NCBI GenBank assembly: GCA_964412165.1 | Contig: CAYPMW010000005.1 | Location: 2,576-66,575 of the forward strand | Direction of reading: 5' to 3' | Length of the DNA stretch: 64,000 nt | Origin: an uncultured Gammaproteobacteria bacterium | Lineage (GTDB): Bacteria > Patescibacteriota > Microgenomatia > UBA10105 | Shown: one piece after another, positions 45,001-48,000 of the stretch | Layout: the number at the start of each line of letters is the position of its first letter | How positions within the stretch are numbered: the stretch's first letter is position 1 | Position numbers: made by a program

Positions 45001-48000
45001 CAAAAATACTTGGGCAGTGGTTTATTCCCGAAATACCAAATTCTTTATACAGTAAATGTCCTGTTAGATGGGCTAAATCATGGATACTGCCGCTGGTGCC
45101 TGATTCGCCTTTAAAAGCGGTAAAAAGAAAATCACGGACTGCAAACACTCCTTTATTTGTAGCCATGTTAATAAGTGCAGCCTGTTGTTCTTCATAAGGG
45201 AGCTCTTTGAACTGTGCTGCATCAACTACTCCGGCAATTTCACCTGCAGGCGGAGAGGGAAGACGCCAGAGGATCGCGACCAGTCGAAGCGATAGGTTTT
45301 TAAGAAATTCTACTATTTGTGATACGAGCGATGGGCGCTGCGTATCTGGTAAAACTGAAGCCGATGATCTCGGTATTAAGGAAGAGGGTAATGACGAAGG
45401 ATTTGAGGCAACTGTTTGTTCAGAAACGACCGTAAGCACGCCGCGTTTATGCGGAAATAAGTGATCATGAAATCTCCAGACGCCTGTTTTATGGGGAATA
45501 AAATTCCATGATGAACTCGGCGGAATCGATTTTTTAGGATCAAACTCCGGGTAGAGTTCATGGGTTGGATGGATATTTGAAGCCGGCCAGCGGTCAACGA
45601 TATCTTTGTTGGTAAAAATTACCGTATTGCCGGCTTCAACGGTAATCTCAGACGGTTCAAAACCATTGGGGGTTATTTCTATTACTAGCGTAGCCGAGCG
45701 GGCGGTGATGGGAGAAGGGAAGATTAGCACGGTAATACTAAATAAGAGAAACATGATGAGTTTAACCGAAGTATTCATGAGTTGAACAATCTTATCGAAA
45801 AACTTACTGCGTTGGCAAGTACATTTATCGGCTATTCAAGAAAAATGCAAGTGACTATCTAAAGCCTGTTATCTGCCGAACATGTATAAAAGAAGCGTTT
45901 CCCACCAGCTAAGCTCGCTGGTTGCGCCGTGAGTTTCACCACCTGAAGGAGTGCCGTAACTAGGCGTTTCATAGGTGGGTGTGCCGTATGATGGAGTGCC
46001 ATAGGAGGGAGTGTCGTAAGTAGGTGTGCCGTATGATGGAGTGCCATAACTTGGGGTCCCATACGAGGGAGTTCCATAGGATGGAGTCCCGTAAGGAGTA
46101 TAGTATGTGGGCGTTGGATATGATCCACTTGGTGTGGGATAGGAATATGATCCAGAGGGTGTGGGATAGTAGTAGCTTCCTCCCGGTGTATAGTATGAAG
46201 GCGATGGATAAGCATATCCGCTACCGGGAGTGGGATACGCATAGGTCCCTCCCGGAGTGTAGTATGAGGGTGAAGGGTAGGTGTATCCGCTTTCGGGTGT
46301 CGGATAACTATAAGTGCTGCCTGGTGTCGGGTATGAGTAGCTACTACCGGGAGTGGGATACGTATAACTTCCAGTTGGTGTGTAGTAACCTCCAGTCGGC
46401 GTCGGATAGGTATACCCGGTTCCTCCGCTCGGTGTTGGGTAATAATACACTCCACTCGGCGTATGGTAAGGAGGACTGGTGTAACTACTCCCTGGCGTTG
46501 GGTAGTAGTAAGAAGGAGAATAATAAATTATTGGATTTGGTGGAGTTGGATAGCTGGTTGGTGAGTAATAGTACGGCGTTGAATACTCAGGGGGAGTATA
46601 ATACGTCGGCGAAGTATACGTACTTCCCGGCGGAGGAGTGTAATACGATGGTGTCGTATAATGGGGGGGAGTATAGTAGGTGGGTGTTGTATAAGTACCA
46701 CCAGTATAAGGCGTATAGTATGTGGGAGTGGTGTAGGGTGGAGGGGTTACATAACTCGGAGTCGTATAAGTACTTCCTGTTGGCGGAGTATAATAGTATG
46801 GCGTCATGTATGGGGGCGGAGTGTAGTAGTGCGGGGTGGTATAGTTGCTGCGAACCGGTGGAGTATAGTACAAAGGTGTAGCATACGTAGGTGTGGGATA
46901 TTCACCACTTGGTGTGTAGTAATAGCTTCCCGGCGTATAGTAGGTTGGTGTGTAATATCGGCTTTCTGCGTGGGGTGTATAGTAGGAGGGTGTTGAGTAA
47001 ATGCCCGGAGTATAGTAGTTTGGCGTGGTGTATTCCTGTCCTGGAGGTGGGGTGTAGTACATGGGAGTGACATAAAAGCTGGTAGCCGGTGGGGTGACGT
47101 ATACAAAATCAGTTGGCGGCGTGTAATACGTCCCAGGAACATAGACATCTAGCGGTCGGGGAGCATTAGAATCAAATCCCTGGCACGCATCAGGGTTTTC
47201 TTTACAGTAATCATAACATTCACCTGGAGATTTACAGTTACCCATATCAGGACGCGGCTCATAGTTTACAAGAGTCCCTGGTGTATAGTAAAGTGTTGGT
47301 ACATACGTATCTCCAGGTCTTGGTGCATCAGGGTCAAATCCGCCGCAGGCTCCTGCGTTAGCTTTGCAATAATCATAACATTCACCTGGAGTTTTACAAT
47401 TACCCATATCAGAGCGGGGTTCAAAATACGCGCTTTGGGTCACAGGTACTATTCCGGGGGGAGGATTTTCCTGACACGCATCGCCGTCCCAGTATTTACC
47501 CGTGCCTCCGCAAGCCGCCGCGTCTTGAGTTTTTTCAACTGGGGTACATGAACCGCTTTGACCAAAGAAGTGACCCTCCGGGCACGTTACGGGTACGTAA
47601 GCGCCATTGGCACCAGGAGCGTAGCTGCGGCAATCTTGAGGATTTTGTTCACAGTGGGTACGACATGATTCCTGACTATCACATCCTCCCGGTCCGGTAA
47701 ACTGACCACCGGTTTCAGGTGGCCCATATTCTCGGCAGGTATCAAAATTATTGGGATCACTACAGTAACTTTTACACGTATCCTCTGAGACACATCCTGC
47801 CGGTCCTTCAATCTTAGTACCACCGAGGAGTCCTACAGCATTGGCAAACTGATCACATTTTTGAGTGTTAGTTGGATCGTCACAGAAGCTACTACATGTT
47901 TGAGCTGAATCACAACCTAATACTTCTTGGGCTTGTTCTAAGAATTCTGGATTGTCTGGTTCTTGGACATATCCACCGGTGATTTCCTCTTCTTTAGCAA

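Follow-up and report, generated by a model that had tools for sequence, protein, structure and literature searches.

The Tyr/Pro/Thr-rich tract encoded in our window (the whole stretch of 64,000 nucleotides that was analysed) is best explained as an extended and intrinsically disordered stalk within a secreted protein of the cell envelope that is specific to Microgenomates, which belong to the Candidate Phyla Radiation (CPR); we put the probability of this reading at about 0.5. The tract lies in a protein of 848 amino acids that consists of a signal peptide, a helical head with four-Cys units, the tract itself and a C-terminal motif (Table 1). Judged from sequence, the tract is a protein-level repeat under selection, and the protein probably serves as an envelope stalk or fibre that is possibly O-glycosylated or cross-linked through Tyr.

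Table 1. Features of the tract gene and its neighbours, with positions in the window
Feature	Positions	Strand	Basis
849-aa secreted protein with His-rich cupredoxin domain and two Cys/His-rich alpha-solenoid domains, downstream neighbour	43229..45778	-	Pfam, AF2, Foldseek
CDS of the 848-aa secreted protein	45869..48415	-	ORF list; full-length homologues 45–60% identity; second assembly 100% identical
Conserved C-terminal element, aa 824–848: SGGETH-G830-ATSE, then predicted helix (LSWWETLLLYMFGR)	45872..45946	-	conservation, AF2
Ten [S/T/P]Y[G/D/E]TP pentapeptides, 7 exact SYGTP, in synonymously differing 15-nt units	45947..46096	-	TRF, pairwise identity
Tyr/Pro/Thr tract, aa 428–823, ~60 Y-x-[T/S]-P motifs	45947..47134	-	composition, motif statistics
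Disulfide-rich head, aa 55–425	47141..48253	-	Cys positions, conservation, AF2
Signal peptide, aa 1–30 (R8/K9, hydrophobic core, putative cleavage STFA/QE)	48326..48415	-	read from sequence
Small partner gene, 96 aa from ATG; one TM segment, tail with three NPF/PF motifs	48412..48702	-	ORF list, conservation
Sigma-70-like promoter candidate TTGACA-18-GATAAT, upstream of partner gene	48724..48753	-	11/12 matches
391-aa N-terminally anchored Cys/His-rich helical-repeat protein, upstream neighbour	48778..49953	-	orthologues 57–72% identity

The 848-residue protein and its repeat

The gene that encodes the protein is real: its frame is not spurious, and nothing obvious points to an assembly artefact. 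The frame is open without interruption, and in the Logan assembly of SRR12113383 (L001) 7,871 nt that include the entire gene match the window with 100% identity. More than 30 species-level orthologues share the frame, the order of the zones and the conserved C-terminal motif downstream of the tract. Other frames across the low-complexity sequence also stay open over 198, 285, 111 and 114 aa, as a spurious ORF or a mis-assembled region might show, but the shared features of the orthologues and the identical independent assembly make such an artefact scarcely credible. The first-pass annotation had described a secreted protein with Cys modules and a Tyr/Pro/Thr low-complexity end at 45925–47125, which corresponds to aa 431–831, and this description holds. 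It had named an interrupted frame and an assembly artefact as findings that would overturn it; no interruption was seen, and the search for Tyr-rich repeat proteins in related genomes that it recommended returned dozens of orthologues with the same tract.

AF2 places a helix at aa 2–28, within the signal-peptide region, and in homologues this segment closes with a conserved AQ. The head contains 32 Cys, arranged in seven units of the pattern C-x5-C-x3-C-x6/8-C plus one four-Cys insert; the N-terminal units had been taken for six-Cys units, whereas they are four-Cys units. Both previously reported NCK.PGECYDYCK units are present, as GNCK(T/S)PGECYDYCK at aa 338–350 and 392–404. Across 55 aligned sequences 26 of the 32 Cys are invariant and 5 nearly so, and AF2 predicts a helical fold with a pLDDT of about 80–95. 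The head is common to 1,813 clusters at 50% identity.

Over aa 431–823 the tract is composed of Tyr (25%), Pro (23%), Thr (22%), Ser (12%) and Gly (9%), together 91%. In its full 396 residues charged residues and His amount to only 14, with no Lys and two Arg. The core unit Y-x-[T/S]-P, counted 60 times as Y.[ST]P, is varied in three successive zones: YYTP(P) at aa 428–625, nonamers G-x-S-Y-x-Y-P-T-P at aa 640–770 and pentamers at aa 774–823. Tyr stands three residues ahead of a Pro run in 71 of 75 cases; these runs are mostly single Pro and are preceded by Thr (54), Tyr (14) or Ser (6). Across 25 species the tract measures 315 to 547 aa and holds a composition of 22.9 ± 0.8% Tyr, 23.3 ± 1.5% Pro and 20.8 ± 1.8% Thr; Lys is absent from 20 of 25 orthologous tracts, and Y-x-Y motifs number 14 in the tract of the window and 4–19 in orthologues. 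Based on a 55-sequence alignment of this low-complexity region, AF2 assigns the tract a pLDDT of about 33, which predicts disorder. Due to the presence of Pro every few residues, typically 5–9, regular alpha or beta structure is excluded and a semi-rigid, polyproline-II-like thread is favoured.

The repetition does not extend to the DNA. Eleven near-perfect SYGTP pentapeptides encoded by near-identical 15-nt units had been reported, and perfect nucleotide repeats of this kind had been proposed as a hotspot for slipped-strand length variation. The terminal array exists, with ten pentapeptides of which seven are exact. The near-identity of its units does not: their mean pairwise nucleotide identity is 69% with no identical pair, and identity at third codon positions among the SYGTP units is 32%. 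Tandem Repeats Finder, the check that had been suggested, found matches of only 67–73% in the tract. The synonymous codons for Tyr, Thr and Pro are all used about evenly, and no exact repeat in the tract exceeds 26 nt, a length reached by a single pair with copies 45 nt apart; over 26 Tyr-rich tracts (that of the window and 25 related ones) the median of the longest exact repeat is 27 nt. The near-identical tandem units that mark a simple-sequence contingency locus are thus absent. A hypermutable locus with length or phase variation by slipped-strand mispairing could be read from the length range between species and from the 26-nt duplicate, but the low unit identity, the scrambled third positions and the weak tandem matches speak against it, as do the exact agreement of two assemblies and unit lengths in multiples of three, with which slippage would leave the frame unswitched. 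As far as the sequence can tell, this reading is very unlikely and largely refuted, and the slipped-strand hotspot is ruled out by low unit identity and scrambled third positions. From the same two properties we conclude that the repeat is one of the protein level. Taken together, the constant composition, the scrambled codons and the conserved zone order show that the Tyr-rich version is a speciality under selection.

Conserved ends, partner gene and linked neighbours

Downstream of the tract lies a C-terminal motif that was missing from the first-pass annotation. It is found in about 90 of 121 homologues, including some without a Tyr tract, and G830 is invariant in the alignment. The family consensus is VQG[VIA][ST]T, followed by an amphipathic helix of 12–16 aa and then K/R. 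AF2 predicts the helix at aa 837–845 (pLDDT 68–85). Over 94 sequences its mean hydrophobic moment is 0.53 compared with 0.29 for shuffles; the window protein's own helix is weakly amphipathic, with a moment of 0.23. With a length of only 12–16 residues and this low moment, membrane anchoring by the helix appears uncertain. The protein ends in GETHGATSELSWWETLLLYMFGR and carries no LPXTG, and the arrangement required for sortase anchoring (LPXTG, a hydrophobic segment of ~20 residues and a basic tail) is absent from its C-terminus. Among 1,487 ORFs taken from the window and from related loci, a small sample biased to the neighbourhoods of these genes, a regular expression for the motif gave 39 matches, all of them in proteins with the four-Cys head; a general sorting signal was rejected on this ground.

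Because a conserved motif follows it, the tract is not a degenerate tail but a spacer with a conserved element on either side. In paralogues, Gly/Ser-rich or Pro/Ala/Gln-rich spacers occupy its position and both the head and the C-terminal motif are kept, which argues for a basic role as spacer or stalk. The protein belongs to an unannotated family restricted to Microgenomates, with the signal peptide, the helical four-Cys head, a variable low-complexity spacer and the C-terminal "VQG-x-S-T plus amphipathic helix" in common, and the Tyr-rich tract is one of its spacer variants. We define this unnamed "4-Cys head / VQG-helix" superfamily by a signal peptide, the lead-in KYG(V/I)(T/S)FPI-x-ELG-x-C, five C-x5-C-x3-C-x8-C units, a C-terminal invariant Gly followed by a helix, and an upstream gene with NPF motifs. 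In the window protein the lead-in is a variant (GNVTFPIPELGSC); all seven Cys units are present, as are G830 followed by the helix and the NPF partner. Neither Pfam nor NCBIfam gave a match for the whole protein, the head, the tract, the C-terminal peptides or the small partner (E up to 10 for parts), and the PT-repeat, LPXTG, PEP-CTERM and GlyGly-CTERM profiles were among the families without a match. A homology search with the tail only recovered members of the same superfamily and one unrelated multi-TM protein, no Tyr tract of the same type was found on other heads among 8,000 scored candidates, and full-text literature yielded no published description of the family.

The stop codon of the small upstream gene overlaps the start codon of the large gene (ATGA). 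Its frame is open up to a TTG at 48753, which would give 113 aa, the length originally assigned, but this TTG belongs to the −35 box of the site that most resembles a promoter in the region 42800–50400, a site identified by consensus match only. Most likely, translation starts at the ATG at 48702 and yields 96 aa; the translational coupling and the single TM segment of the original description stand, while its length probably does not. The partner is kept in 53 of 70 species-level loci, in 27 of them with the same ATGA overlap, which bears out the earlier suggestion of a dedicated partner. In 49 of the 53 loci the gap to the large gene is at most 10 nt or the genes overlap. The partner consensus is V.lkt.Y.NPFdk..QYVNPF..YKNPF..lk, and the gene also adjoins Tyr-less paralogues.

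Two further neighbours occur only beside the Tyr-tract subfamily. Of 31 Tyr-tract loci, 27 have an orthologue of the 391-aa protein upstream, compared with none of 37 Tyr-less loci, and the linkage of the 391-aa and 849-aa proteins to the tract (27/31 versus 0/37) gives a Fisher p of 5e-15 that ignores phylogeny. The cupredoxin neighbour, on which the first-pass annotation was silent, is present in 23 of 31 against 0 of 37 loci. AF2 models the 849-aa protein with a mean pLDDT of 85.7. The match to Pfam Cupredoxin_1 is weak (25.8 bits, just under the 27-bit cut-off), and in Foldseek the modelled domain reaches a TM of 0.7–0.8, normalised to target length, with plastocyanin, amicyanin and the Cupredoxin_1 of B. 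anthracis, consistent with a Greek-key beta-sandwich. H70, H73, H104, D105, H106 and H110 are invariant; the domain has no invariant Cys or Met to complete the type-1 copper ligands His, Cys, His and Met. The alpha-solenoid domains found only generic structural matches, the best over the whole chain being peptide-binding karyopherins with a TM of only 0.17, and each domain has invariant His/Asp/Glu clusters, including an HEXXH-like HEVTH. Since the Tyr version travels with these two Cys/His-rich alpha-solenoid proteins, we infer that they bind or modify the thread. Alternatively, the linkage could have been inherited as synteny within a single orthologous group and have no functional meaning.

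A link between the cluster and glycosyltransferases is weak. Of the two candidates in the window that had been recommended for inspection, one is a weak PMT_2-like gene at 10961–12382 (E 2e-5, short of the Pfam cut-off) that lies about 35 kb from the tract gene, and the other an unclassified 10-TM protein about 10 kb away; neither has relatives in 72 related loci. GT-C-like candidates lie beside 5 of 31 Tyr-tail genes and 4 of 37 Tyr-less paralogues, which is no enrichment, and the related loci contain no conserved glycosyltransferase in the tract gene cluster. Tyr-less paralogues in L009 and L010 follow three GT2 genes and belong to a different subfamily. Distance, lack of relatives and these counts leave a glycosyltransferase linkage unsupported. 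A bacterial PMT favours Ser/Thr sites within disordered, Pro-rich peptides that are secreted (PMC12331936). The tract offers such sites, with 60 [ST]P in a segment of pLDDT about 33 behind a signal peptide, and no PMT or other GT-C gene was found linked to it.

Comparison with known systems and alternative readings

Tyr in Pro-rich proteins of the plant wall is cross-linked by peroxidases, and extensins are O-glycosylated (PMC4132260). Like the tract protein, plant extensins are secreted, repetitive, rod-like wall proteins rich in Pro, Ser, Thr and Tyr, and both contain Y-x-Y cross-link motifs, 14 of them in the tract as a pattern match. In contrast to extensins, the tract is built of Y-x-T/S-P instead of Ser-Pro3-5 blocks, lacks Lys and is not basic; the protein shares no sequence homology with them, is bacterial and carries a Cys-rich head as well as a C-terminal helix. 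The scanned ORFs of the window included no recognisable peroxidase or prolyl hydroxylase. The PT linkers and LPXTG-upstream regions of Gram-positive bacteria and actinobacteria, substrates of O-mannosyltransferases, are likewise disordered spacers rich in Pro and Ser/Thr, but they do not contain 25% Tyr and are far shorter than the tract with its about 400 aa, and the tract protein has neither the LPXTG nor a conserved adjacent PMT gene.

CotC and CotU of Bacillus subtilis are rich in Lys and Asp. Dityrosine links occur in the Bacillus spore coat, where Tyr-rich proteins are also present (PMC7944565), and CotC/CotU and the oocyst-wall proteins of Eimeria are Tyr-rich components of extracytoplasmic, dityrosine-containing structures (PMC7944565, PMC4776368). 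The tract is likewise Tyr-rich, but these proteins are not homologous to it and are small or differently composed, and they lack its regular Y-x-T-P periodicity and the layout of head, stalk and helix. The heptads YSPTSPS of the RNA polymerase II CTD and the GYYPTSPQQ repeats of wheat HMW glutenin are turn-rich, extended and elastic. They resemble the tract in their Y/S/P/T composition, and a literal YSPTSYPTP stands at aa 616–624, but compartment, period and organisms differ, the tract has no Gln and the likeness is compositional only. E. coli PBP5 and PBP6 are exported proteins with a cleaved signal peptide that are anchored to the membrane by a C-terminal amphipathic helix. The 848-aa protein shares a short amphipathic helix at its extreme C-terminus, but the element differs in its "VQG-x-S-T" with an invariant Gly, in its restriction to one family and in its pairing with a small membrane protein.

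For the topology, anchoring and extension of the protein, and for any glycosylation or cross-linking, we propose the following working model. The promoter upstream of the small gene would drive a translationally coupled pair, a 96-aa bitopic membrane protein that would expose an external tail with three NPF motifs and the 848-aa protein. After Sec export and cleavage of the signal peptide, the first ~400 residues would fold into disulfide-stapled helical modules and form the distal "head", followed by ~396 uncharged, Lys-free residues as a polyproline-II-like thread, about 100 nm long if fully extended. The last ~18 residues after the invariant Gly may form an amphipathic helix that tethers the protein either at the membrane or to its NPF partner. 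The two neighbours of 391 and 849 aa might bind the Tyr thread or modify it chemically, for example through metal-dependent Tyr–Tyr cross-linking. Combined with possible Thr-Pro O-glycosylation, cross-linking would produce a fibre or mesh in the envelope that resembles extensin. Against this part of the model, cupredoxins with a single domain usually carry electrons or bind metal and do not act as oxidases. In its most far-reaching form, the model would make the four-gene cluster (391-aa protein, NPF protein, Tyr-thread protein and cupredoxin-solenoid protein) the equivalent in prokaryotes of the extensin system of plants: a membrane-tethered thread of ~100 nm, linked by dityrosine or isodityrosine into a covalent mesh by metal-binding proteins of a new fold family, with the VQG-x-S-T helix and NPF partner as a new tether. 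This analogy is speculative and we consider it improbable.

Many CPR bacteria live attached to hosts. As the source organisms belong to the CPR, the tract itself might, as the first-pass annotation had suggested, be an adhesive or cohesive coat that sticks to hosts or substrates, or gels through Tyr stacking, DOPA or dityrosine. Its 25% Tyr at regular spacing and 14 Y-x-Y motifs fit this reading, self-association would be favoured by SYG-type motifs and zero net charge, and a cupredoxin-domain neighbour is linked to the tract (23/31 versus 0/37 loci). However, mussel-foot-type DOPA adhesives have Lys-rich basic repeats, and the tract lacks Lys or other cations of this kind (0 Lys and 2 Arg in 396 residues). 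Pfam and NCBIfam recognised no oxidase, tyrosinase or peroxidase in the cluster. That paralogues carry a Gly/Ser or Pro/Ala/Gln spacer in place of the tract and keep both conserved ends further points to a position that is primarily a linker, and we regard an adhesive coat as somewhat unlikely. Alpha-solenoids commonly bind extended peptides, so that the Y-x-T-P repeats might instead be multivalent docking sites for the flanking alpha-solenoid proteins in a non-covalent envelope scaffold, which would suit their co-occurrence with the tract (27/31 versus 0/37) and the resemblance to karyopherins. But the structural matches are generic, and the invariant His/Asp/Glu clusters and HEVTH resemble metal sites more than peptide grooves; a docking ligand is unlikely.

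Implications for CPR cell envelopes

A large part of bacterial diversity falls within the CPR; almost all of these bacteria are uncultured, and their envelopes and surface appendages are poorly known. Their surfaces probably mediate attachment to hosts. The 848-aa protein defines an unannotated envelope family, its head common to about 1,800 clusters at 50% identity, with three unexplained conserved elements: the disulfide-stapled helical head, the C-terminal Gly plus helix and the coupled NPF-motif partner. The Tyr-rich subfamily adds the linked pair of Cys/His-rich alpha-solenoid proteins, one with a cupredoxin domain. If the tract is only a spacer, it is a clean case of strong selection on the composition of a low-complexity region that is not repetitive at the DNA level. 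Cross-linking or glycosylation of the Tyr thread, if it takes place, would make the thread a new type of bacterial wall polymer, and dityrosine, hexosylated Y-x-T-P peptides and surface fibrils of ~50–100 nm would be targets for metaproteomics and cryo-tomography.

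Anatomy and DNA of the Tyr/Pro/Thr tract

The secreted 848-aa protein is encoded without interruption, and the tract marked by the first-pass annotation at window 45925-47125 corresponds to aa 431-831. The head contains 32 Cys, arranged as seven units C-x5-C-x3-C-x6/8-C plus one 4-Cys insert (aa 278-314). The N-terminal units are four-Cys and not six-Cys units as initially described, and the two GNCK(T/S)PGECYDYCK units singled out earlier are indeed present, being copies 6 and 7 of the four-Cys unit. In an AlphaFold2 model based on a 55-sequence alignment, helical modules at aa 55-425 (pLDDT 80-95) are followed by practically no regular secondary structure at aa 426-833 (pLDDT ~33) and by a helix at aa 837-845 (pLDDT 68-85). 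No relative for any part of the protein was found in Pfam, NCBIfam or PDB, and a Foldseek search of the model against the PDB gave no match.

The tract (aa 431-823: Y 25%, P 23%, T 22%, S 12%, G 9%) is free of Lys and has 14 charged or His residues in all. When units are defined by cutting after each Pro run, one core motif emerges, with Tyr three residues ahead of the run in 71 of 75 cases and T (54), Y (14) or S (6) immediately preceding Pro; 60 Y-x-[S/T]-P motifs lie within the 396 residues. The motif is elaborated in three zones (Table), the last of which holds ten pentapeptides, seven being SYGTP, instead of the eleven near-perfect SYGTP copies reported before. Shorter Y/T/P linkers (YVPTLYYTPGT..., YVPGTYYTPP; aa 365-387, 420-430) already separate the last two Cys modules and also follow them, and paralogues such as P0059 carry up to four Cys modules with low-complexity linkers between them, which suggests that expansion of an inter-module linker gave rise to the long tract. 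Four ORFs of 111-285 aa also span the tract in other frames because low-complexity sequence is stop-poor; they should not be annotated as genes.

The tract had been taken for a slippage hotspot built from near-identical 15-nt units. With Tandem Repeats Finder, suggested as a check, repeats of period 15 and 30 match at 67-73%, the ten 15-nt units share a mean identity of 69% with no identical pair, and identity at third codon positions is 32% among the seven SYGTP units, so that neither statement holds. The 19 YYTP copies occur in 17 distinct DNA versions, all synonymous codons for Y, T and P are used about evenly, and the longest exact repeat is a single 26-nt pair (median 27 nt, maximum 59 nt across 26 tracts). 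In 25 complete orthologues the composition is constant (Y 22.9±0.8%, P 23.3±1.5%, T 20.8±1.8%, Lys almost absent) and the length varies from 315 to 547 aa. Constant composition together with the lack of long exact DNA repeats indicates selection on composition and motif at the protein level, with a length that drifts over evolutionary time and DNA that is not prone to slippage. A contingency locus is essentially excluded. The same applies to an artefact: the frame is unbroken, the Logan assembly of SRR12113383 (L001) reproduces window 43650-51520 at 100% identity, and the tract, as far as can be judged, does not stem from misassembly.

Conserved ends, NPF partner and family

The tract is a stretch between two conserved ends, which the first-pass annotation missed. 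C-terminal to it lies (V/T)(Q/H/M)-G-(V/I/A)-(S/T)-T-x-(R/K) with an invariant Gly (G830), then a helix of 12-16 residues, then K/R. The helix is amphipathic on average (n = 94; hydrophobic moment 0.53, against 0.29±0.15 in shuffled sequences); the moment of the window protein's own helix is only 0.23. The element recurs in paralogues in which a Gly/Ser-rich or Pro/Ala/Gln-rich spacer or extra Cys modules replace the Tyr tract. No match to a known C-terminal sorting domain was obtained, and among 1,487 ORFs taken from the window and from related loci the motif is confined to proteins with the 4-Cys head; it is therefore family-specific, and a general sorting signal was rejected. In one fused relative, P0069 (913 aa), the Tyr tract is internal, the order being head, Tyr tract, '...CQCTQGVS', second head, Ig-like domain (PF19077) and C-terminal TM anchor, so that another module takes the place of the C-terminal helix.

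An ATGA overlap joins the upstream ORF to the 848-aa gene. Since its TTG 'start' is the -35 box of the region's best sigma-70-like site and the gene is called at 96 aa in the Logan assembly, the partner gene is likely the shorter ORF listed in the Table. The overlap and the single TM segment agree with the earlier description of a translationally coupled single-pass protein, whose proposed length of 113 aa is probably 96 aa. The tail (external) bears three NPF/PF motifs (consensus V.lkt.Y.NPFdk..QYVNPF..YKNPF..lk). Homologues of this ORF lie immediately before the large gene's position in the cluster at 53 of 70 loci, with the ATGA overlap in 27 and an overlap or gap of ≤10 nt in 49 of the 53. 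Because it also accompanies Tyr-less paralogues, the NPF protein is a partner of the family, through head and/or C-terminal element, rather than of the Tyr tract per se.

The search for Tyr-rich relatives was fruitful: more than 60 homologues with the 32-Cys head were found, ~58 of them also with a Tyr tract (45-60% identity), all unnamed or 'hypothetical' and, where the source is named, from Microgenomates, Daviesbacteria and other Patescibacteria. The 72 loci of a scan with one genome per species are nearly all from Microgenomates (Gottesman-, Levy-, Davies-, Curtiss-, Blackburn-, Chisholm-, Roizman-, Woesebacteria), with few, weak relatives in Parcubacteria. When 1.84 billion representatives were searched with a profile, 1,813 clusters passed E ≤ 1e-3 and 810 passed E ≤ 1e-30; almost all have just the head in common. 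The family of the 848-aa protein is CPR-restricted and not described in the literature searched. Many MAGs titled 'uncultured Gammaproteobacteria bacterium' (L012, L014-L017 and others; TPA 'binchicken' or ERP co-assemblies) hold this Microgenomates-specific cluster at 50-60% identity, and their organism names are evidently placeholders or wrong.

Linked genes and neighbourhood

Two flanking secreted Cys/His-rich proteins are tied to the Tyr tract. A 391-aa orthologue (57-72% identity) lies upstream in 27/31 Tyr-tract loci and 0/37 Tyr-less loci (Fisher p = 5e-15, loci counted without phylogenetic correction); at least two of the four exceptions have only a truncated gene copy. A cupredoxin-domain protein is nearby in 23/31 versus 0/37. 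The remaining flanking genes vary from locus to locus, so the conserved unit is a four-gene cluster. Glycosyltransferases, which the first-pass annotation had pointed to, are not linked to it in the window or related loci. Tyr-less paralogues with their NPF partners directly follow three consecutive GT2 genes in two loci (L009, L010).

In the AlphaFold2 model of the 849-aa protein (mean pLDDT 85.7), aa 30-118 adopt a cupredoxin fold, with TM scores of 0.7-0.8 against plastocyanin, amicyanin and the metal-bound Cupredoxin_1 of B. anthracis; the remainder forms an alpha-solenoid whose structural matches are all generic. Invariant in the cupredoxin domain are H70, H73, H104, D105, H106 and H110, a set that lacks the Cys/Met type-1 ligands, and in each solenoid domain H-[D/E]-x2-H, C-x-H-G, C-x-H-G-x-G-H and M-E. 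This conservation suggests metal sites. No Pfam match was obtained for the solenoid domains, and PDB sequences include no relative of the three paralogous proteins, which may represent a new family of enzymes or metal binders. Two of the three paralogous solenoid proteins start with a His-rich cupredoxin-like domain, and one solenoid copy has HEVTH, resembling the zincin HEXXH motif.

Several neighbours were noted. The DUF5667 protein just downstream of the cluster is typical of CPR genomes, and a second, canonical cupredoxin lies ~5 kb away, as do two tandem penicillin-binding proteins. A PBP1A gene also occurs within ~5 kb of a family member in L009, L010 and ~15 other related loci, Tyr-tract and Tyr-less alike, which hints at a link to wall synthesis or at old synteny. 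PMSR genes stand 5-16 kb from the cluster on three unrelated contigs; together with the AhpC/TSA and superoxide dismutase genes of the window, they could be there by chance or could point to oxidative envelope chemistry. The FIMAH protein is unrelated to the Tyr tract.

Table. Coordinates of features (window unless a related locus is named)
Feature	Position	Strand	Remark
848-aa Tyr-tract protein	45869-48415	-	
Tract zone 1	aa 428-625		YYTP(P)-type units
Tract zone 2	aa 640-770		G-x-S-Y-x-Y-P-T-P nonamers
Tract zone 3	aa 774-823		ten pentapeptides [S/T/P]Y[G/D/E]TP, 7 exact SYGTP
Y/T/P linkers	~47255-47323, ~47126-47158		
Other-frame ORFs	45859-46455, 46804-47148	-	
Other-frame ORFs	46024-46881, 46661-46996	+	
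NPF partner gene	48412-48702		likely extent
Promoter candidate	48753-48724	-	TTGACA-18-GATAAT
391-aa Cys/His-rich protein	48778-49953	-	secreted; paralogous to 849-aa protein
849-aa Cys/His-rich protein	43229-45778	-	secreted; cupredoxin domain + alpha-solenoid (AF2)
457-aa Cys/His-rich alpha-solenoid protein	35831-37204	-	secreted; third paralogue of 849-/391-aa pair
1,857-aa protein	37260-42833	-	three DUF5667 domains (E 3e-45)
146-aa plastocyanin/azurin-type copper protein	54663-55103	+	Copper-bind (E 6e-16)
Class A penicillin-binding proteins	55110-57491, 57569-59896	-	PBP1A type
Methionine sulfoxide reductase (PMSR)	29636-30238	-	
PMSR, related loci	L002 2727-3284; L008 3014-3595		
AhpC/TSA	16997-17497		
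Fe/Mn superoxide dismutase	62281-62892		
493-aa protein	14917-16398	+	C-terminal FIMAH domain (E 1e-8)
Tyr-less paralogues after GT2 genes, related loci	L009 1386-5180; L010 2077-5686		with NPF partner; three consecutive GT2 genes

A proposed head-stalk-tether envelope protein

The most economical reading is that the 848-aa protein is a head-stalk-tether protein of the envelope. After cleavage of the signal peptide the disulfide-rich head would be released, and the C-terminal helix, the NPF protein (produced in coupled amounts) or both would keep the thread at the membrane. With Pro every few residues (typically 5-9), the Y-x-T/S-P thread should lack regular alpha or beta structure and form a semi-rigid extended chain, whose 396 residues at ~0.3 nm per residue could span up to ~100 nm. 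A spacer role is indicated by the other spacers that paralogues carry at this position. Compositional conservation, Y-x-Y motifs and exclusive linkage to putative metal-binding proteins suggest a Tyr-specific role in addition. By analogy with extensins (PMC4132260) and the dityrosine links of the Bacillus spore coat (PMC7944565), oxidative Tyr cross-linking of the thread is a plausible candidate; another is O-mannosylation-type glycosylation at Thr-Pro sites, for which there is precedent (PMC12331936). Rival readings of the same tract are a self-adhesive coat material and a ligand offering the solenoid proteins multiple docking sites.

The anatomy and gene linkage of the Tyr-tract protein are solid and were not reported in the literature searched; its function is what we infer. 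Compared with known low-complexity Pro/Thr stalks of bacterial surface proteins, the 848-aa protein differs by a Lys-free tract of 25% Tyr with a regular Y-x-T-P unit, by its undescribed CPR-restricted family, by a dedicated NPF partner together with a C-terminal element that is new, and by its tie to a cupredoxin/alpha-solenoid gene pair.
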